The translations under genes were made by a program, and so were the position numbers. The notes under the pieces are model-generated. The model searched no databases. It worked only from the letters and a program-made list of their open reading frames with translations, and was not told the origin of the DNA. A stretch of 64,000 nucleotides of DNA from Octopus vulgaris (taxonomy: Eukaryota). The stretch is taken from the NCBI GenBank assembly GCA_951406725.2, contig OX597814.1, positions 85,188,001 to 85,252,000 on the forward strand, given 5' to 3'. Positions 3,339 to 63,099 of this stretch are shown here, in pieces; the stretch's first letter is position 1, and each line of letters begins with the position of its first letter.

Positions 3339-3367
3339 TGTGTATATATATACAATTCAAAAAACGT

Positions 3368-3516
3368 AGGTGTGGCTGTGTAGTAAGAAGCTTGCTTCCC
3401 AACCACATGGTTCCAGGTTCAGTCCCACTGCATGGCACCTTGGGCAAGTGTCTTCTACTATAGCCTCGGGTCAACCAAAACCTTGTGAGTGGATTTGGTA
3501 AGCAGAAACTGAAAGC

Positions 3517-3572
<56 letters not shown>

Positions 3573-3779
3573 TGTGTGCCTGTGCTTGTCCCCGCACCAT
3601 AGCTTGACAACCGATGTTGGTGTATTTACATCCCTGTAACTTAGCACTTCAGCGAAAGACACTGAGAATAAGTACTAGGCTTACAAAGAATAAGTCCGGG
3701 GGTCGATTTGTTCAACTAACAGTGGTGCTCCAGCATGGCTGCAGTCAAATGACTGAAACCAATACAAGAATAAAAGAAT
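3368..3779 (+). mobile_element. tRNA-derived SINE, family A (internal microsatellite, LINE-like 3' tail)
   Basis: tggctgtgtagtaag A-box, ggttcagtccc B-box, caccttgggcaagtgtctt CORE-like motif, internal (TA)n, 3' ggtgctccagcatggctgcagtcaaatgactgaaac...aataaaagaata. Confidence 0.85.
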
Positions 3780-3815
3780 ATGATCATATACTAAATACAC
3801 GTGCATATGTATGTA

Positions 3816-3846
<31 letters not shown>

Positions 3847-4061
3847 TTTGTGAAATAGAAAGATGAATAATCTTGTTGCAGATTAATCAAAAGTTTAACC
3901 GATACCTTGGTAGCAAAAATCACAGCAGAAGACAGCACGGTTGGAGGTACAACCATATGGTGTTGCAACCGTGCGTTGGTGCGGATAATTGAATTTTAAT
4001 ATTATTAGTGAATTGAAGAAATGGAGTTGAACGAAGATTGAACAGAAATCGCTTTATTGCA

Positions 4062-4126
4062 TTCTACACGTGTTTCGAAAGGCACGATTGAATAAGGAGA
4101 CCATATTGTGTCTTTCTCTTCAGGAA
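4062..4126 (-). ncRNA. Minimal hammerhead ribozyme (copy 1; 15-nt deletion in loop II)
   Basis: Minus strand: ttc-CTGAAGA-gaaag acac...gtgc ctttc-GAAA-cacgtg-TA-gaa. Confidence 0.7.
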
Positions 4127-4296
4127 GAAATAGGAAATCCGTTGGAAAAAACAAAAACAGAACAGAGGCGGAGCAAAACAAATCGAACGAGGCTCCTAAG
4201 AGCCCATGGCCAAACTCTATATATATATATATAATATTATTAGTGAATTGAAGAAATGGAGTTGAATGAAGATTGAACAGAAATCGCTTTATTGCA

Positions 4297-4376
4297 TTCT
4301 ACACGTGTTTCGAAAGGCACAATTTACCAAATTCTGATTGAATAAGGAGACCATATTGTGTCTTTCTCTTCAGGAA
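4297..4376 (-). ncRNA. Minimal hammerhead ribozyme (copy 2)
   Basis: Intact CUGAAGA/GAAA core, long stem II, palindromic CACGUG stem III, GUA triplet. Confidence 0.72.
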
Positions 4377-4555
4377 GAAATAGGAAATCCGTTGGAAAAA
4401 ACAAAAACAGAACAGAGGCGGAGCAAAACAAATCGAACGAGGCTCCTAAGAGCCCATGGCCAAACTCTTTGGCCATGGGCTCTTAGGAGCCTCGTTCAAT
4501 TTGTTTTGCTCCGCCTCTGTTCTGTTTTTGTTTTTTCCAACGGATTTCCTATTTC

Positions 4556-4635
4556 TTCTTGAAGAGAAAGACACAATATGGTCTCCTTATTCAATCGGAA
4601 TTTGGTAAATTGTGCCTTTCGAAACACGTGTAGAA
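4556..4635 (+). ncRNA. Minimal hammerhead ribozyme (copy 3, C3U core mutation)
   Basis: ttc-TTGAAGA-gaaag...ctttc-GAAA-cacgtg-TA-gaa, followed by AATAAA at 4639. Confidence 0.6.
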
Positions 4636-4690
4636 TGCAATAAAGTGATTTCTGTTCAATCTTCATTCAACTCCATTTCTTCAAGTCACT

Positions 4691-4737
<47 letters not shown>

Positions 4738-5928
4738 ATTCAAAAAACATGTAGAAAATAAACATACGAACATATACTAAATACAAATGTGTGTGTGTGT
4801 GTGCGTATATAACGTAACATAATATAACATAATGTAATATATAATATCTATAGATTAAAGGGTCTGGAGCAATAGCATCTTTTAGCTAGTAACATAGGAT
4901 ATTGGACCACTTATTCCCAGGGAGAAAATGATGTTTTAATCAATGATTCATATTCTGGTTTAGTACCAAGATGTCCCACAGACTGTCTACACAGACCTGG
5001 GCAGACATAAAAAGACAATACCTTATAATAATAATAATTATAACTTACACCAACCCTGAATGGCAGTTTTCCAAACATCAGCAGATGAAGGCAGTTACTG
5101 GTGGAAAGCCACTTTATCAGACAGATCCTAATAGGCCAAATATTAGGCAGCCTACTACAGAAGAACATATATCTTTGCTATCATAATACCTTTATGGCAT
5201 GAGAAGAAGATTTTGAAAATAAAGATTGTGCTGATCAATTACTTGCAATCAATTACTGCCTTTTCATGTAGAGGTTTGTCACTTATTTCTTACTTATTTT
5301 TCATATGTTTGTGTATGCACATGCATGCCTGTGCATGCATGCATGCCAATGTAATGTTATAACTTCCATGCTATGTTCATGGTGGGTTATAGAAGATCCA
5401 AGAAATATTAACACAGAATTAACAGTAAATACATCAGCTAAGGTTACAAATTGAAACACAGCTTTTTTTTCTATTTCATTTTATTTTAGTCTTCTATTTA
5501 TTTTTCTATTCCTCCCCACACTACCATCTTCCTTCCTATTCACGTAGTTAAATAAGTTTGTAACCTCCCTGAAATAGATAAGTGCCAACTTTAAAGCAAA
5601 AAGAAAAATAAAGTACAAAGTTATTGATTCTGCAGGTTTCACTGTCTTTTCTTTTTTTATAGGTCTTTGCTCCACTGCTTCCCTAGTGCATCATGTTTGA
5701 TGTGTAAATCAATATCTGACAGTTAAATATCTGTTGTCAAACTCTAGCTTCATCTGATTTAAAGTTTCAAAGAGTTAATGATGCGATAACAGGTATTGGA
5801 TATTGAGGTGAGATGACAACTGAGTGATTAAGGTATATTCTAACTGTAAATAGGTCATGAGTTCAAATGTGTGGCTGGTGTTTCATAGTGTTTCAGGACA
5901 CAAAAAACATACACACACACACTTTTCT

Positions 5929-6228: not shown

Positions 6229-6682
6229 AACTCATCTTGCACAGTCCATTTACCCATAGGTGGACATCTAGCTGGGCCACAAAAAAATCCCAAGCTGACA
6301 GAGATAACTGAAAATGAATAAAGGAGTTACACTTATTTGGCAAAGAATCTGATCTGAGTTTGTATATTGAAACTGAAACAATTGCAGCCAAATTTGTTGT
6401 TTAAATACAAACACCATTATATTTACTTTTATGCTGTAATTGTCTTATATTATTAAGCATCTATGCATGTTGTAAGAGGTGTCTAAAAGTGTTAGCTAAC
6501 AGAAATGAGAGTATCTGGCCATAAAGCACACTGCCTCAGAACAGCCATCTAACTCAAGCCAACACCAATAAATAGGTGTATAACAATGATGAATGAGGAA
6601 GAAAGACTTTCATCATACATTTATAAGCTGGTCGCTTCCAATCTATTTATATTGTAACAATTTACAACAAAGATAGGATGGA

Positions 6683-7590: not shown

Positions 7591-8529
7591 AACTATGATT
7601 AATAACTATCTTTAAAAAAAAGGGGAGGAGAGTAAGGACCAAATATATATATTCAACTTAGAAAGTAAATCGAAATATTAAGAACACAACACAAGATATA
7701 TGCTGAAACTAATGAAGTAGCATTAGAATATTTCTGGTTCAAATTTTTATGTTACTGTTTTGACAAATCCATCAAATGTTTGATAGGAAGTTAACATCAG
7801 CCATCAGGTAGATATCTGCAAGTGGTGATAAGTTATTACAGTTGATAAAATAATATACCATTCAAATACTGGGGTTGGTTTAATTGACTAATCCCTCTCC
7901 TCAAGATAGCTAGTTTTAATGCTTAAATTAGAAACAATGTGATATGGATAATCTATATACTAGCTATCATGCACATCCTGCAATTAACCCAAAGCCTAGA
8001 GTTTCTTATCTCAATTTTTGATGTGGGTTAACACAGGTCAGTGCTGATCATGCATGCTTTTGATTAAAAGCATTCCAGCAGTAATCTTATTGCCTTTTTC
8101 TCAGACATAATGCATCTATATCTAGTACTGTATTATCCAATTTGTCTTTCCTTTATTATTGTGATTTGAGAGCAATTGTTATTTCTACCAGAGCAAGCAG
8201 TCATATAGATACTCTATTAAGAGAGGCTGAATGCTGAACTTTCTACTCATAGTCTTCTCCTGATCCTTAGGAGAAACTGAACTCAGCATTGTAAGGAAGC
8301 ATTTGTTACATATGCAGATTAACCATTCCTTTGCAACAGCAGTGAACTATACCCACATCTTGTAATTATTTGATAATTAGGGTGCTACAATTATTTCGCT
8401 ATGCAAGAGACGCTGTTTATCCATAACCGACCAATCTGCTTTCTGTATTGCTTCTCTATTCTTGGTAACATCAACAGTGTCCCTAAATCTAACATCATAT
8501 CTAGTTAGATCCTCATTAGCCTGTGAAAT

Positions 8530-10689
8530 ATGTCTTGTGTTTTAGCAGCTAGATTCCTACGGGACAATCTGCTGACAGCCACTGACCAGATCTGTGGATG
8601 GAGCAAAGTACCATCTCGACCCAGAGTAACATGGTGGTGGAACACTGTGGTTGACAGGGCTATTAGACAAAAGAGACAGGCTTGGAAGGACTGGAAGAAC
8701 GGTGGTAGCAGGGAATTGTATCAGACAGCCAAAAGGGAAGCTAGGAGACAGGTTTATTTAGCCAGAGGGGAAGCGGATAAGAAAAAATTTGCCAATGTTC
8801 TGAGCCGTGAGGATGAAAGACTTGAGGTATTTCGTGTTGCAAGACAGTGTGTGAGAGAGAATCGTGATGTGGTAGGAGAGAAGTGTGTTCGCATGGATGA
8901 TGGTTCACTTGCGCTAAATGAGGATGCAAAGAGAGAGGTTTGGAGATGCCACTATGAAAGGTTGCTGAATAAAGAAAATGAATGGGATAAAGAGAGTCTG
9001 CCGAATGTTGACCCAACAGAGGGACCAGCTATCCGAGTTGATAGTTCCGTGGTAGCTAAGGCAATTAGAAGCATGAAGACAGGGAAAGCCCCAGGCCCAT
9101 CAGGAATTACTGCAGAGATGCTCAAAATATCTGGCAGTGTCGGCTATAACCTAGTCACCCGTATAGTCAACCAGGTGATACACGAAGGAGTCATACCCAA
9201 TGACTGGTGTAGCAGCATACTAGTCAACTGCTACAAAGGTAAAGGTGATGCCCTAGATACAAATAATTACAGAGGTATCAAGCTGTTGGATCAGGTAATG
9301 AAGGTTACGGAGAGGGTCATAGCCCAACTAATTAGAGAGAGAGTTAGTTTAGATGAGATGCAGTTTGGGTTTGTCCCAGGGAAAAGCACCACTGATGCTA
9401 TATTCCTGGTAAGGCAGCTGCAGGAGAAATACCTAGCCAAAGATAAGCCCCTGTACCTGGCTTTCGTTGACATGGAGAAAGCCTTTGATAGGGTCCCCCG
9501 ATCCCTCATCTGGTGGTCAATGAGGAAACTAGGGATAGATGAATGGCTGGTGAGGGCTGTGCAAGCCATGTACAGAGATGCCGTAAGTAAGGTTAGAGTT
9601 GGCAGCATGTACACAGAAGAATTCAAGGTAGAGGTTGGGGTCCACCAGGGTTCAGTACTCAGCCCCCTCCTATTTATCATAGTCCTCCAGGCAATTGTGG
9701 AGGAATTCAAGACAGGTTGCCCCTGGGAGCTCCTCTATGCTGACGACCTCGCTCTAATCGCTGAGTCACTATCAGAACTGGAGGAGAAGTTCCAGGTGTG
9801 GAAGGAGGGTTTAGAATCGAGGGGCCTTAGAGTCAACCTAGCTAAAACCAAAGTACTAATAAGTAGAAAGTTAGAAAATCCACAAATATCCTCAGGAAGA
9901 TGGCCCTGCTCGATCTGTAGAAAAGGTGTAGGTAGAAACTCTATAAGATGTACCCAGTGTAAGCTATGGACACATAAGAGGTGCAGCAATGTCAAAGGTA
10001 GGCTAACTGGGAAGATAGTTTTTGTATGTGGCAGATGCTCTGGAGCATTGACCTCCGAAAATCTGCAGAAAACAACTTCCGTCACTTTCCGGGGGGAAAA
10101 ACTAGAAGTAGTTGATAGCTTCCGCTATCTAGGTGACCAAGTCAGTAGTGGGGGCGGGTGCGCTGAAAGTGTAACTGCTAGAATAAGAATAGCCTGGGCA
10201 AAGTTTAGGGAGCTCTTACCTCTGCTGGTGACTAAAGGCCTCTCGCTCAGAGTAAAAGGCAGACTGTATGATGCATGTGTACGAACAGCTATGCTACATG
10301 GCAGTGAAACATGGGCCGTGACTGCTGAGGACATGCGTAAGCTTGTGAGGAACGAAGCCAGTATGCTCCGATGGATGTGTAATGTCAGTGTACTTACTCG
10401 ACAGAGCGTTAGTACCTTGAGAGAAATGTTGTACCTAAGAAGCATCAGTTGTTGTGTGCAAGAGAGACGATTGCGCTGGTATGGTCATGTGGCGAGAATG
10501 GATGAAGATAGGTGTGTGAGAAAGTGCCAATCCCTAGCAGTTGAGGGAACCCATGGAAGAGGTAGACCCAGGAAAACCTGGGACGAAGTGGTGAAGCACG
10601 ACCTTTGGACGTTAGGTCTCACCATGGAAATGACTAGAGACCGAGACCTATGGAAGTATGCTGTGCGTGAGAAGACCCGGCAAGACTAG
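8530..10689 (+). CDS. RTE ORF: reverse transcriptase with an inserted PHD-type zinc finger (first few codons probably flanking DNA)
   Basis: Uninterrupted 719-codon frame; C4HC3 motif at 9901-10038. Confidence 0.9.
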   Translation: MSCVLAARFLRDNLLTATDQICGWSKVPSRPRVTWWWNTVVDRAIRQKRQAWKDWKNGGSRELYQTAKREARRQVYLARGEADKKKFANVLSREDERLEVFRVARQCVRENRDVVGEKCVRMDDGSLALNEDAKREVWRCHYERLLNKENEWDKESLPNVDPTEGPAIRVDSSVVAKAIRSMKTGKAPGPSGITAEMLKISGSVGYNLVTRIVNQVIHEGVIPNDWCSSILVNCYKGKGDALDTNNYRGIKLLDQVMKVTERVIAQLIRERVSLDEMQFGFVPGKSTTDAIFLVRQLQEKYLAKDKPLYLAFVDMEKAFDRVPRSLIWWSMRKLGIDEWLVRAVQAMYRDAVSKVRVGSMYTEEFKVEVGVHQGSVLSPLLFIIVLQAIVEEFKTGCPWELLYADDLALIAESLSELEEKFQVWKEGLESRGLRVNLAKTKVLISRKLENPQISSGRWPCSICRKGVGRNSIRCTQCKLWTHKRCSNVKGRLTGKIVFVCGRCSGALTSENLQKTTSVTFRGEKLEVVDSFRYLGDQVSSGGGCAESVTARIRIAWAKFRELLPLLVTKGLSLRVKGRLYDACVRTAMLHGSETWAVTAEDMRKLVRNEASMLRWMCNVSVLTRQSVSTLREMLYLRSISCCVQERRLRWYGHVARMDEDRCVRKCQSLAVEGTHGRGRPRKTWDEVVKHDLWTLGLTMEMTRDRDLWKYAVREKTRQD

Positions 10690-12842: not shown

Positions 12843-13704
12843 CAGGGTGAGATAGGTAAATTGTTGCGATTTTATATTTTTAATTTCATACATGCACATT
12901 GTATTTGATTTTGTTAGCTACACAGTGTAGTAGGGTCAGTTGGACATCATCTGTACGCAAAACAGCACCATTACACAATTCACTTTGCCAGAAATTTGGA
13001 AACAACATGGTGTACTGCTCGGCATTTGCACCGAAGCTCCTATACGAACATTTCAGAGTGTTTGGGTGTCAATCTGAGGACAGTGCAAACTGAGGTCATG
13101 TACTGAGAGTGATAAAAATCAAACATCTACCCAACATTATGGTGTTTGGAGTGATCACTACTGATGGCAATGTTATGCCTCCATTCATCTTTCCACATGG
13201 TCTCAGACTCAACACAGAGGCCTACATCAAGTGCCTGGAGGAAGTAGTGCTGCTCTGGGTCAAGAGGGTGTCTGCTGGAAGGCACTATACATGACAACAA
13301 GCAGGAGAACCCGATCATGGCTGTCAGACAATTTCTGTGGCCACATTACCCCTAACATCTGGCCCAACTAACTTCCCAGACTACAACCCCCTTGATTATT
13401 ACGTGTGGGGCACAGTTGAGTAAGAGACCAACAAAACTCCTTGTAACACCAAAGATGAACTGAAGGTAAGGATTATGGCAGCATTCACCAACTTAAACAA
13501 TGAGACCGTCCAGAAGAGTTGCAGGAGATTCTGAAGTCGTCTGGAGGCCATGGTTGAAGCTAAAGGTGATATTATTGAATATATTTACTCTTTAGTATTT
13601 CAAGATATTTTTATGTAATTTTGTAAATATATCTGTTAAAATGAGAGGTCAGAGTTATTTTCATTTTTGTGTAATTTAGATGACAGTTTATTCACTGCAC
13701 CCTG
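12843..13704 (+). mobile_element. Tc1/mariner-superfamily DNA transposon, maT (DD37D)-like, internally deleted
   Basis: TA|CAGGGTG ... CACCCTG ends; transposase remnants MVFGVITTDGNVMPPFIFPHGLRLNTEAYIKCL and PDYNPLDYYVWG, with stops and deletions. Confidence 0.8.
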
Positions 13705-15053: not shown

Positions 15054-15107
15054 CATTGTAACTATCACAGACTAGGCAGAAGGAACCAATAGGTTTCTTT
15101 TTATACC
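15054..15107 (-). CDS. Candidate 54-nt internal exon (YKKKPIGSFCLVCDSYN), phase 1-1
   Basis: Strong acceptor ttcctctttctttatctttgcag|, donor ATG|gtaaat, length divisible by 3, one open frame. Confidence 0.45.
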
Positions 15108-28979: not shown

Positions 28980-29889
28980 ATAGGATGTCCATTTGAATTT
29001 GATGATAAGCTCCTCGAGGTATTACTTGAAGAAAATCCTGCATTATCAGTTGAAGAATTGGCAATAAAGTTTAGTTCAAACCATACAACAGTTTATCGTC
29101 ATCTTCAACAACTTGGAAAGGTTCCTGTATTTGGAAAACGGGTGCCTCATGAATTATCTGAAAGCAACCACAAATCCCGAGTCGACATCTGCTCTTCTCT
29201 CCATTCTTGTGAACACATTTCACCCTTTTTGGATAGACTTGTGACTGGTGATGCAAAATGGGTCTTCTATCAAAATGTTAAATGTCATAAACGGTGGCTT
29301 GGTAAAAGGGAAAAAGCTCAACCACAACCGAGAAGGGAACTTCATCGGAAAAAGGTTCTCTCTATCAGGTGGGATTGCAAAGAAGTAATTCACCTTGAAT
29401 TGTTACCACCTAAAGCAACAATCAATGCTCAAGTCTACAGTCAGCAATTAGAGTGTTTGAACCAAGCTTTGAAGAAAAAAAAGACCCACTTTAGTGAATT
29501 GAAAAGGAGTGATGTTTTATCAGGACAATGCACGACCCCACACTACAAAGATCATATCACAGAAGATTGGAGAGCTTGGTTGGGAAAAAATTCCTCATCC
29601 ACCTTATTCTCCTGACCTTGCTCCTTCAGACTACCATTTGTTTTGTAGTTTACAGAATCATTTGGGGGACATAACTTTCGCAAGCCAGGAGGAGGCTGAC
29701 ATTTCAGAGTTGTTCACTTTGAAACCAAGAGTTTTACATTGATGGGATTGAAAAGCTTGTAAATGGATGGAAGAAAATCATAGATAATCAGGGAAAGTAC
29801 ATTGATGATTAAATTTCAATTAAATATAACATTTGATCACTTGTTTTCTTTATTCAAAATTTGGACAGAACTTATGGGATGACCTGATA
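28980..29889 (+). pseudogene. mariner (DD34D) transposase remnant with right TIR; 5' end lost
   Basis: RVPHEL, LVTGDAKW, QDNARPH, HPPYSPDLAPSDYHLF; frameshift in the A-run near 29475; end gaacttatgggatgacctgata|TA. Confidence 0.92.
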
Positions 29890-30233: not shown

Positions 30234-59850
<29,617 letters not shown>

Positions 59851-59950
59851 NNNNNNNNNNNNNNNNNNNNNNNNNNNNNNNNNNNNNNNNNNNNNNNNNN
59901 NNNNNNNNNNNNNNNNNNNNNNNNNNNNNNNNNNNNNNNNNNNNNNNNNN
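59851..59950. other. Assembly gap (100 N)
   Basis: Run of N. Confidence 1.
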
Positions 59951-60089: not shown

Positions 60090-60134
60090 TGAACTAGTAC
60101 TTTCATGCATTGAATTCTGCAATCTTCGGGTTCA
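60090..60134 (-). ncRNA. Minimal hammerhead ribozyme in the Penelope 3' end (U4C core variant)
   Basis: Minus strand: tgaac-CCGAAGA-ttgca gaattcaa tgcat-GAAA-gtac-TA-gttca; 5-bp stem I, palindromic stem III. Confidence 0.65.
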
Positions 60135-60197
60135 TGTAGTAGTGTTGACAGTCATGCTTCACAATTTTTGACTGTAGCAAGATGAGTGATTCTGTGC

Positions 60198-60628: not shown

Positions 60629-62435
60629 TTATTGCTTATTTAGCTTGGGTTCGAATTTATCAATAAAATTCTTTTCTCTGATTTTCCTCTCGATTTCACT
60701 TGGGCTGTGTAATTTGTAGAATGGAAATATTATATATATTTTCCGACCACATGTTGCTAGGTGGTTACTCAAAGGTATCTGACGGACCTCTGGGTCTCTA
60801 ATCTGTTGCCGGTGTACACGTGAGCGTTCTAATAGTGCGTTTCCCGTCTGACCTACATATATTTCTTCACAATTTGGGCATTTGATGCAGTAAATTAAAT
60901 TTCTGCTTTTGCAGTTCATATTCGCGTTTGTGAATATTTTCCCGGTTTTTGTGTTTATATATTGACCGGTATGTATGAATTGGCATGTGCCACATCGGCT
61001 ATCATTGCATTTAGATACCGTGAATGTTTGGTCTTTGTTGCTGAGGTCAAATTTTGCCTTTGTTAGTAATGTTTTCAAGTTTTTAGGCTGTCTTTTACTA
61101 AGCACCATAGCTCGATCCTTGATTATGTCTTTTAATTCATTACTTTGGGCAATGATTGGAAGGTTTGCTTTGGCAATGTTGAAGATATTCTGGTGACATG
61201 GGTTGTGTGTCACTATGAATGGTATGACTTGTTCTTGTTTTCCTCTTCCTTGGGTTGTCCTAAGTTGTTGTATAGGTATTTTTATAGCCCGCTGTATGCC
61301 ATTTTCTATAAGTAGAGATGGGTATTTTTGTTTGAGCAAAAATTCTCTTAGTTCTATTAGGCGTTTGTTCCTGATATTTGCATCTTCTACAATAGTACAA
61401 ATTCTTCTGGCTAGGCAGTATGGGATGTTACGTTTTGTATGTGGTGGATGGCACGACTTAAAATTTAGGTATTGATGTGTGTCTGTGTGTTTATAGTATA
61501 TATCTGTGGTGATGGTGGTGTCTTTTTTAATTACCATTATATCCAGGAATGGTAATTTGGTACTACTCATCTCCTTTGTAAATTTGAGAGATGGGTGTAG
61601 GTTGTTCAGGAGGATATTGAACTCTTCCAGAGTATTTAGAGATTCTGTCCAGATTATGAAACAGTCGTCTAGGTATCTCTTCCATGCCTTTTCAATATAC
61701 TTTCTAAATCCAGTGCCATAGTTTACCTCCACCTCTTGGTAGAGTTGTTCTTCTAAGTATCCCATTACAGAGTTGGCGTAAACGGGAGCAAACCTCGTTC
61801 CCATCGCCGTGCCTCTAATTTGGATGTAATTCTTTCCATTGAAGAAGAATGTGTTATTTTCTAGAATAAGTTTGACTGTGTCTAATATAAATGGCACTGT
61901 GAATCTGCTGGGAATCACTTCTCTATGTTTTTCTAACCAGTATTTAATCGCCTTTATTCCTAAATCGTGTGGAATATTGGTGTAGAGGCTTACCACATCA
62001 AAACTTAGCAAAACTGAATTTGTTTCTGTTGTTTTGGGAAGATGGGACAGGAAGTCGATGTCATCCCTGATGAAACTTGGTATGTAAGTACATAGTGGTT
62101 TCAAAACAATGTCAATAAAATTGCTTAGACGGTGTGTAGGGCATGCTGGACCAGCTATAATAGGTCTAAGTTTTAGGTCTTTTGGATGTAATAATTTTAT
62201 GTACTCACTTTCTTGTTCTTTTACTGCCTGTTGAATGTTTTTTTGATTTGTGTATTTTTGGTAAGCCGTAGAAGTTGCTGGGTTTTGGTTCAAAATTGGT
62301 GATGTAGTCTTTTTCATTATCCGTAAGTGAGTTGTGGTGTGTTGAAATCAGGTTGTTGATCTTTTTCATGATGTGGTGGTCTATATTTGCGGGTATTTCA
62401 CAATAGAAGGTTGTATCCTTCAGTTGGTATCCTTC
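60629..62435 (-). CDS. Penelope-like RT + Cys-rich linker + GIY-YIG endonuclease (one frameshift in an A-run near 62240)
   Basis: FYGLPKIHK, LRPII, SFDVVSLYTNIP, GTAMGTRFAP, RYLDD, PFLDI, linker CNDSRCGTC, endonuclease NLIYCIKCPNCEEIYVGQTG...R...H...H. Confidence 0.92.
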
Positions 62436-62451
62436 ATATATATATATATAT

Positions 62452-63088
62452 ATACACAAATTAGTAAATAAATGGCACAACTAAGTACCGATATTTACTG
62501 GAAATAGCGAACGTAAAAATACGACGCTAATGTGTAGCTTCACCGCGTATGTATTAGCAAAAATGCGTGTGTGCAACAAACTAGAGCAAAAAAACGTCTT
62601 ACCTCCAGGGAGAACATCTGAAAGATGAAACACCAGGAAAAGGATAATGTGTGACCTGCAGGTTTCAGGTTTTACAAGATATGTCTCTCACCCATATTTT
62701 GTTTTACCTTCATCAGCCAAGCATATACCAAGACGAAATCTACGATGTTACCACATTAATACTATCACACTCGACTGAAATGCGGAACGCTAACAGCACG
62801 AGAAACGGTGAAGAAGTTTCAAAATATCAGTAATGCAATACAAAGTATCGCCTTCCAGTAAAAAGTAGCCCGTGAGGGAAAAATACACAAATTAGTAAAT
62901 AAATGGCACAACTAAGTACCGATATTTACTGGAAATAGCGAGCGTAAAAATACGACGCTAATGTGTAGCTTCACCGCGTATGTATTAGCAAAAATGCGTG
63001 TGTGCAACAAACTAGAGCAAAAAAACGTCTTACCTCCAGGGAGAACATCTGAAAGATGAAACACCCGGAAAAGGATAATGTGGGACCT
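62452..63088 (-). mobile_element. 431-bp hammerhead-containing tandem unit (~1.5 copies); retrozyme or Penelope pseudo-LTR
   Basis: 62452-62657 repeats almost exactly at 62883-63088; bounded by TA-rich runs. Confidence 0.8.
62650..62719 (-). ncRNA. Minimal hammerhead ribozyme with canonical core
   Basis: Minus strand: tgg-CTGATGA-aggt aaa acaa a atatg[ggtgagaga]catat c ttgt aaa acct-GAAA-cctgcagg-TC-(a/c)ca. Confidence 0.8.
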
Positions 63089-63099
63089 TTTATATATAC

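Follow-up and report, generated by a model that had tools for sequence, protein, structure and literature searches.

Two direct copies and one inverted copy of a hammerhead-bearing, probably Penelope-like repeat in a TA microsatellite of Octopus vulgaris

Results

Organization of the insertion

The DNA analysed in the current work (here named the window) is a stretch of 64,000 nucleotides of the Octopus vulgaris genome, near one end of which three copies of a short repeat are embedded in TA-rich sequence. The features to which the text refers are the following, given with their position in the window and their strand:

3824..3846, no strand: TA microsatellite (23-nt run) at the 3' end of the element and its likely target; a contig of run X8 has a loose end at 3851
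3847..3996, minus: 150-nt 3' extension of copy 1, resembling a long optional tail (from contig depth; single copy in the window)
3935..3974, minus: hairpin of the extension, its 9-bp stem being perfectly paired (z -2.76; an equally good fold in 3 of 200 shuffles)
3997..4218, minus: copy 1, with a 15-nt deletion in the stem II extension (from sequence comparison)
4062..4126, minus: motif of the type I hammerhead in copy 1; the core is intact and cleavage is predicted between 4065 and 4064
4218..4233, no strand: TA run (16 nt) between copies 1 and 2, a target remnant or slippage filler
4232..4470, minus: copy 2, left palindrome arm (from sequence comparison and contigs)
4297..4376, minus: type I hammerhead motif of copy 2, with a 6-bp stem II extension, predicted to be sequestered in the long hairpin
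4462..4470, no strand: head-to-head junction, a native 3-bp micro-palindrome with a 3-nt loop (from contigs)
4468..4698, plus: copy 3, inverted, right palindrome arm, five substitutions relative to copy 2 (from sequence comparison)
4556..4635, plus: hammerhead motif of copy 3, with U in place of C3 at 4559
4695..4730, no strand: TA microsatellite (36-nt run) that adjoins copy 3 at its 3' end and is its likely target

An earlier note on this DNA, made by a model from the letters alone, had described three near-identical units, of which two are in tandem with TA repeats between them. Both statements are borne out: blastn against copy 3 over 231 nt returns the other units at 97.8% (E 1e-112) and 91.3% (E 1e-95) identity, and copies 1 and 2 are separated by the 16-nt TA run. 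Relative to copy 2, copy 1 has a single substitution (at 4032) and the 15-nt deletion, and copy 3 has its five substitutions with no insertion or deletion, figures which fit the view that the insertion is recent. The palindrome of about 465 bp with a 3-nt spacer is likewise present, its arms (4234-4464 and 4468-4698) being 231 nt each, 98% complementary and 3 nt apart, while the supposed spacer appears to be native sequence of the element (see below). The outer ends of all three copies adjoin TA runs, as expected of an element with a (TA)n or AT-rich target. The insertion contains no open reading frame (ORF), and no further copy of the unit or of 3847-3996 was found elsewhere in the 64-kb window.

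The public material that was compared with the locus consists of assembled contigs rather than raw reads. Part of 3850-5900 is contained in 20 of the 24 listed runs, the best of which covers 0.80 of its words; four runs (X1, X3, X5 and X8) were aligned to 3850-4700 at 85% likeness, leaving out X20-X24, whose share is small or zero. The alignment took in 1289, 910 and 1213 contigs of the three runs that are DNA or unlabelled, and 86 of run X8, which is guessed to be RNA. Considering that 910-1289 contigs align per DNA run, the unit, searched in this way beyond the window, belongs to a multi-copy family, summed contig depth giving no copy number.

The left boundary, placed at 3997 by the earlier note, did not hold. 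The sequence 3850-3996 is itself repetitive, with a depth in the range of the unit in all four runs, and in a contig of run X8 another copy of the family also meets TA at the 3847 end. Because this stretch is covered as deeply as the unit and other copies abut TA there, the element extends to about 3847; copy 1 thus spans about 3847-4218 (about 372 nt) and ends in the TA run. Contigs crossing the ends of the aligned stretch number 7 (X1), 80 (X3), 68 (X5) and 3 (X8), and at a loose end at 3993 five X1 contigs pass into a variant of the unit start. The hairpin of the extension has four listed variant positions between its arms and none inside them.

An old, diverged duplication (3767-3825 and 4753-4811; 73% over 59 nt) lies on both sides of the insertion. 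Since it makes no contact with the insertion ends, it does not represent a target site duplication (TSD). A piece similar to it occurs at about 3345-3368, before a SINE-like repeat. Elsewhere in the window, 8527-10689 (plus strand) is a 720-aa open LINE-type reverse transcriptase (RT) frame with a PHD-like finger, which we take to be RTE-like; 28980-29740 and 12850-13700 (both plus strand) are, judging by motifs, presumably remnants of Mariner/Tc1-like transposases; and 40921-59801 is a (TAA)n array of about 18.9 kb with 98% matches and short (GT)n islands, followed by a gap of 100 N at 59851-59950.

Hammerhead motifs and their predicted folding

Each unit displays the layout of a type I hammerhead ribozyme, comprising a 3-bp stem I, the core CUGAAGA, a 5-bp stem II which opens with a G-C pair, GAAA, an 8-nt self-complementary stem III region, the cleavage triplet GUA and a downstream AAUAAA. 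The succession of CUGAAGA, GAAA-CACGUG-UA and AAUAAA recorded by the earlier note is therefore present in all three units, the core of copy 3 reading UUGAAGA; rare core variants reduce the hammerhead cleavage rate according to PMC7151607. A minimal-hammerhead descriptor (requiring the core, a stem II with four Watson-Crick pairs, a stem III that is palindromic and a stem I with three pairs) had two matches in the window, the motifs of copies 1 and 2, versus none in each of 50 shuffles, in agreement with the proposal that these two copies carry intact-core ribozyme motifs. The same descriptor matched 11 of 123 fetched Penelope RT loci (10 in sense, one in antisense) versus none in each of 20 shuffles. 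Rfam at the gathering threshold gave no match in the 64-kb window, which is no counter-evidence because minimal hammerheads can escape those models. Similarly, free folding of the three hammerhead regions was no better than that of shuffles (z 0.06, -0.09 and 0.81), which is unsurprising because the motifs are of the dimer type.

In copies 2 and 3 stem II is prolonged by a 6-bp CACAAU/AUUGUG helix. The 15-nt deletion of copy 1 does exist as described, but it is not confined to loop II and removes most of the 3' strand of this distal helix. On free folding copy 1 loses stem II and copy 2 keeps it, and the energy of the constrained monomer changes from -9.6 to -3.2 kcal/mol with the 15-nt deletion.

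The long hairpin formed by copies 2 and 3 has fold energies of -399 and -407 kcal/mol on the two strands. Transcription of the minus strand would yield the complement of copy 3 earlier than copy 2, and folding pairs the copy 2 ribozyme with this complement at probability 1.0 in seven of the eight positions sampled, the eighth being the C3/U3 mismatch. Forcing both stems II to form costs +76 kcal/mol, versus +6 kcal/mol for copy 1 alone. The copy 2 ribozyme is thus predicted to be locked in the long hairpin, which would leave copy 1 with no cis partner for dimer folding.

Conservation and inverted joints in the repeat family

The alignment of public contigs yielded 32 variant rows, 23 of which lie in the unit and correspond to 20 distinct positions after merging 4584 and 4586 with 4348 and 4346, respectively, and excluding 4471 at the junction edge; variant shares are biased because contigs are divided among the three copies. 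None of these 20 positions falls in the 35 core and stem positions (p 0.035), and all 10 variants within the ribozyme span fall in the 45 nt of the stem II extension and loop (p 0.002). Homologous copies consequently keep the hammerhead core and stems, on which the earlier note had made its reading depend. Family contigs carry a one-base insertion just beyond stem I (4127/4377), and at 4346/4586 all three copies share one allele, most contig depth showing another base. The zero depth seen at 4227-4255 in three runs carries no weight, as 4209-4244 was skipped as a repeat in the alignment. An exact 29-nt pattern of the unit had no match in metagenome contigs. A sister family, seen in X3 and X8 at the place of 4288-4380, shows about 86% identity in the hammerhead region and differs in its flanks on both sides.

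At the inner end of the unit, X1 and X5 contigs align through 4470 and carry on beyond it, and a loose end of 22 letters is seen at 4470 in two X8 contigs. Because contigs continue past this position, the head-to-head junction appears to lie on a native AAA-CTC-TTT sequence and the unit to be truncated on its 5' side. Left-pointing sequence is joined to right-pointing sequence in 10 of the 11 joints of the joint listing and in one further joint listed separately. Joint 4047-4288 was left out of the inversion count as a variant aligned across the tandem copies. The 11 other head-to-head joints have distinct breakpoints, an asymmetry of 22-181 nt and depths of 16-72; each represents a single contig, aligned at 85% likeness, whose shorter side has 21-30 letters, and was flagged as weak, so that the joints are weak singly and consistent together. 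The family therefore comprises 5'-truncated copies in partial tandem and head-to-head arrangement with variable breakpoints, as judged from one contig per joint. A foldback or MITE-like DNA transposon does not fit the contigs, as the 11 different breakpoints do not agree with fixed terminal inverted repeats; for this comparison it should be considered that near-perfect palindromes would be under-detected in contigs.

Probable relationship to Penelope-like elements

Taken together, the three copies represent the hammerhead-bearing end of an abundant repeat, likely the 5'-truncated pseudo-LTR (pLTR) of a Penelope-like element, which was probably reverse-transcribed into a TA microsatellite. The Penelope-type reading of the earlier note is supported by the architecture, the hammerhead type, the TA targets, the head-to-head joints and the conservation of the core, and each terminal repeat carries a type I minimal hammerhead conserved across copies, as in Penelope-like elements (PLEs). 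That the element is an ORF-less derivative stood in part: the insertion has no ORF, but this is unproven as a trait of the family, which extends upstream of the unit, so that the copies look like ends truncated on their 5' side.

The window contains a separate Penelope-like ORF at 60629-62347 (minus strand; RVT_1 E 2.9e-6, GIY-YIG E 5.1e-6), the best named relatives of which are bivalve proteins with 55-61% identity. The unit was considered and rejected as being linked to this ORF, in view of the lack of blastn similarity and of a credible tblastn match. In order to collect Penelope RT loci, a single-protein search of genome contigs (108 candidates, none confirmed) and a profile search (43 and 80 loci) were performed. 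The unit had no blastn match to the 123 loci, and tblastn of 120 Penelope proteins against 3847-4470 gave nothing credible (best E 0.005, on the opposite strand). Accordingly, the search for a linked RT/GIY-YIG partner that the earlier note proposed identified none via the window ORF, the 120 proteins or the 123 loci. A literature search of limited coverage returned no paper on this particular repeat family.

Several observations concern the Penelope-like sequences themselves. The 60629-62480 region (minus strand) holds a 572-aa open stretch; a further N-terminal portion, in a different frame, reaches as far as a TA run near 62440-62455. A second hammerhead module is located at 62455-63090 (minus strand), with a core at 62716 and a different, 10-nt palindromic stem III; by eye it holds a direct repeat of about 205 nt (62455-62660 and 62886-63090), whose upstream copy starts near the predicted cut. 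A decayed hammerhead-like motif was also noticed by eye near 60110-60145, downstream of the stop of the 60629-62347 ORF. The Penelope-type RT loci L001-L043 lie inside contigs labelled bacterial, which are likely host DNA binned with symbionts.

PMC13282606 reports 31 recently active Penelope-like families in Octopus vulgaris and quotes a calibration in which a distance of 0.09 corresponds to about 25 million years. If this calibration applies, the arms would be roughly 3 million years old or less.

Weighing of alternative explanations

Three other explanations of the locus were weighed against the Penelope-like reading. The palindrome might be an artefact of assembly or of long-read fold-back, given that no contig bridging this junction with at least 31 letters on each side is among the matches listed (32 pieces, with a further 3513 outside the listing), and that the window contains an N gap and very long simple repeats. 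A fold-back read would, however, mirror copy 1 past the right TA run, and the sequence there is unrelated; the arms, moreover, differ by five substitutions and no indels, two of these being transitions at CpG sites and one a family allele (4335), and inversions at other breakpoints occur in contigs from independent runs. An artefact is thus highly improbable. Somewhat better placed, yet still unlikely, is a non-LTR retrozyme, i.e. a 235-nt tandem monomer that is excised by successive hammerheads, circularised and reverse-transcribed as a rolling circle, one copy having later been inverted. Copies 1 and 2 do form a tandem dimer with 235-nt spacing and intact cores, each of the two units having a complete type I hammerhead, and thereby conform to the working definition of bioRxiv 10.64898/2026.07.22.740005; the size lies within the range given in PMC7229834, and the family also occurs in runs that are taken, as a guess, to be RNA (e.g. 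X8). Against this, the unit is not a closed head-to-tail monomer, for the family runs past both of its ends (150 nt downstream and further letters upstream); stem I has only 3 bp; and the tandem junction is a TA run, lying in the stretch 4209-4244 that was skipped as a repeat in the alignment. The same preprint derives retrozymes from pLTRs, and the Penelope and retrozyme readings therefore overlap.

The third explanation is that the insertion has been co-opted, its sense ribozymes cleaving a host pre-mRNA or its 231-bp hairpin being edited by ADAR or diced, with an effect on the host gene. The long hairpin is very stable, and exon-like stretches with canonical splice signals are found on both sides of the insertion on the minus strand (15054-15107, 6254-6307, 2648-2846 and 2059-2148), which may belong to one host gene. 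A crude exon filter, however, also flagged stretches antisense to a LINE ORF, and the exon-like stretches are devoid of a match to a known protein. For candidate exon 2648-2848, nothing was retrieved from Pfam or among 1.84 billion representatives, none of 18 candidates in a protein database was significant, and the best Atlas (0.83, chance level) and PDB (E 0.38) scores were unremarkable; two other exon-like stretches and one frame of the 150-nt extension also had nothing in Pfam. The call of a host gene was therefore left unsupported by a significant protein match to its candidate exon (2648-2846), and the designation of this exon as the last is questionable, as 2059-2148 lies further downstream. 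Cleavage of a pre-mRNA, also put forward in the earlier note, is disfavoured: with copy 2 locked (+76 kcal/mol to form both stems II) and copy 1 lacking a cis partner, it would be unlikely, and such ribozymes are reported to be poor cleavers, with no cleavage by single minimal motifs and low cleavage by dimers (PMC4209133), a requirement for protein in the anole minimal hammerhead (PMC11167929) and cleavage by one of nine Xenopus minimal dimers (bioRxiv 10.64898/2026.07.22.740005). The A>G and T>C changes of the run guessed to be RNA also occur in DNA runs.

Co-option is accordingly a remote prospect. Long hairpins of this kind, if transcribed, are plausible substrates of ADAR, and on its predicted fold this one may still serve as an ADAR or Dicer substrate. 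The ribozymes at the locus are predicted from folding to be mostly inactive passengers, presumably cargo that was selected in the parent element.

Proposed course of the insertion

Under the Penelope-like reading, a Penelope RT/GIY-YIG protein acting in trans would have nicked (TA)n DNA and cDNA synthesis would have been primed at two internal AU-rich sites, one at 3847 (the long end of copy 1) and the other, used for copies 2 and 3, some 150 nt further upstream; every cDNA would have stopped near one common 5' point. The cDNA of copy 2 may then have folded back on its terminal AAA/TTT and copied itself, generating the inversion, and copy 1 may have arisen by a template jump or by a second event on the same TA run from the same source. 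As described in PMC11167929, PAc (the Poseidon element of Anolis carolinensis) starts reverse transcription internally and nicks both strands at AT-rich DNA in vitro, its insertion in vitro being independent of ribozyme cleavage. Junction palindromes are interpreted as self-priming in PMC3846280, which leaves the template strand open.

Within the Penelope-like reading, fold-back of cDNA on AAA/TTT is the most likely origin of the inversion, with somewhat better than an even chance, as it would explain equal arms that end at the same site. The 3-bp junction stem is not predicted to be stable, which counts against it, and copy 3 holds four to five of the six private substitutions (chance 0.05-0.14 if the copies are equally old), an excess that is slightly awkward for a simple fold-back. 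Priming of another cDNA on the opposite strand, followed by joining through AAA/TTT microhomology, is the less likely of the two routes, though one with a substantial share of the same reading. A broader scenario is very unlikely to hold as a whole. It supposes a Penelope-derived family that lacks an ORF and is mobilised in trans, with an RNA whose 5' end is fixed, an unusually long optional tail of 150 nt and two internal priming sites complementary to TA; its snap-back copies would silence their own ribozyme, and its intronic, near-perfect hairpins of about 230 bp would feed ADAR editing or small-RNA pathways.

Discussion

Both the arrangement and the ribozyme type have been described before, and as a discovery the locus amounts to little. 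Its value lies in being a compact natural record of a Penelope-like inversion, with a junction on a 3-bp native micro-palindrome and arms that end at the same TA-like site, and in belonging to a high-copy family which could help to discriminate cDNA fold-back from two-strand priming, a matter left open by the papers cited. Its importance would rise only if this hairpin were shown to undergo editing or to alter a host gene.

Comparison with known systems

PLEs typically have two direct pLTRs together with an inverted one, palindromes at the junction and a tail on one side only (PMC3846280, PMC8557442). Pen2a and Pen3a of Adineta vaga (PMC3846280) and the scheme of PMC8557442 likewise present two direct pLTRs of about 200 bp with an adjacent inverted one, head to head, and they share with this locus the junction palindrome, an extension at one end and the AT-rich or (TA)n target. 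Unlike in that scheme, the direct copies are here separated by a TA run alone and not by captured DNA or an ORF, the extension on one side measures 150 nt versus the usual tail of 30-40 nt, and no TSD is readable in the microsatellite.

With regard to the ribozymes, truncated PLEs carry minimal hammerheads 100-700 bp apart on opposite strands (PMC4209133), and the dual motifs found here on opposite strands fall within this distance. The short stem I, the long stem II with G10.1-C11.1 and the palindromic 15.2-16.2 region suited to dimers agree with the metazoan PLE hammerheads of the same paper. Typical PLE minimal hammerheads differ in having an unpaired extra base after A9, which is absent here, and the 3-bp stem I also departs from them. 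The stem III palindrome is 8 nt here, versus 4-6 nt in the 11 PLE loci matched by the descriptor.

The locus resembles animal non-LTR retrozymes (PMC7229834; bioRxiv 10.64898/2026.07.22.740005) in its low GC content, in lacking an ORF and in holding a tandem dimer of about 235 nt whose units each carry a type I hammerhead; it differs from them in that the unit is open at both ends in a longer family, joined at a TA run and accompanied by an inverted copy. With PAc (PMC11167929) it has in common AT-rich targets, products of both strands and a pair of internal 3' end points located downstream of the hammerhead; the end points are about 150 nt apart here, in AU-rich stretches that match TA, whereas those of PAc are adjacent sites with no homology to the target.

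The locus is therefore an ordinary example of a known Penelope-like arrangement, larger than first described, and its departures from that arrangement are small, namely the 150-nt one-sided extension, a junction of near-perfect symmetry and the lack of the extra base after A9.
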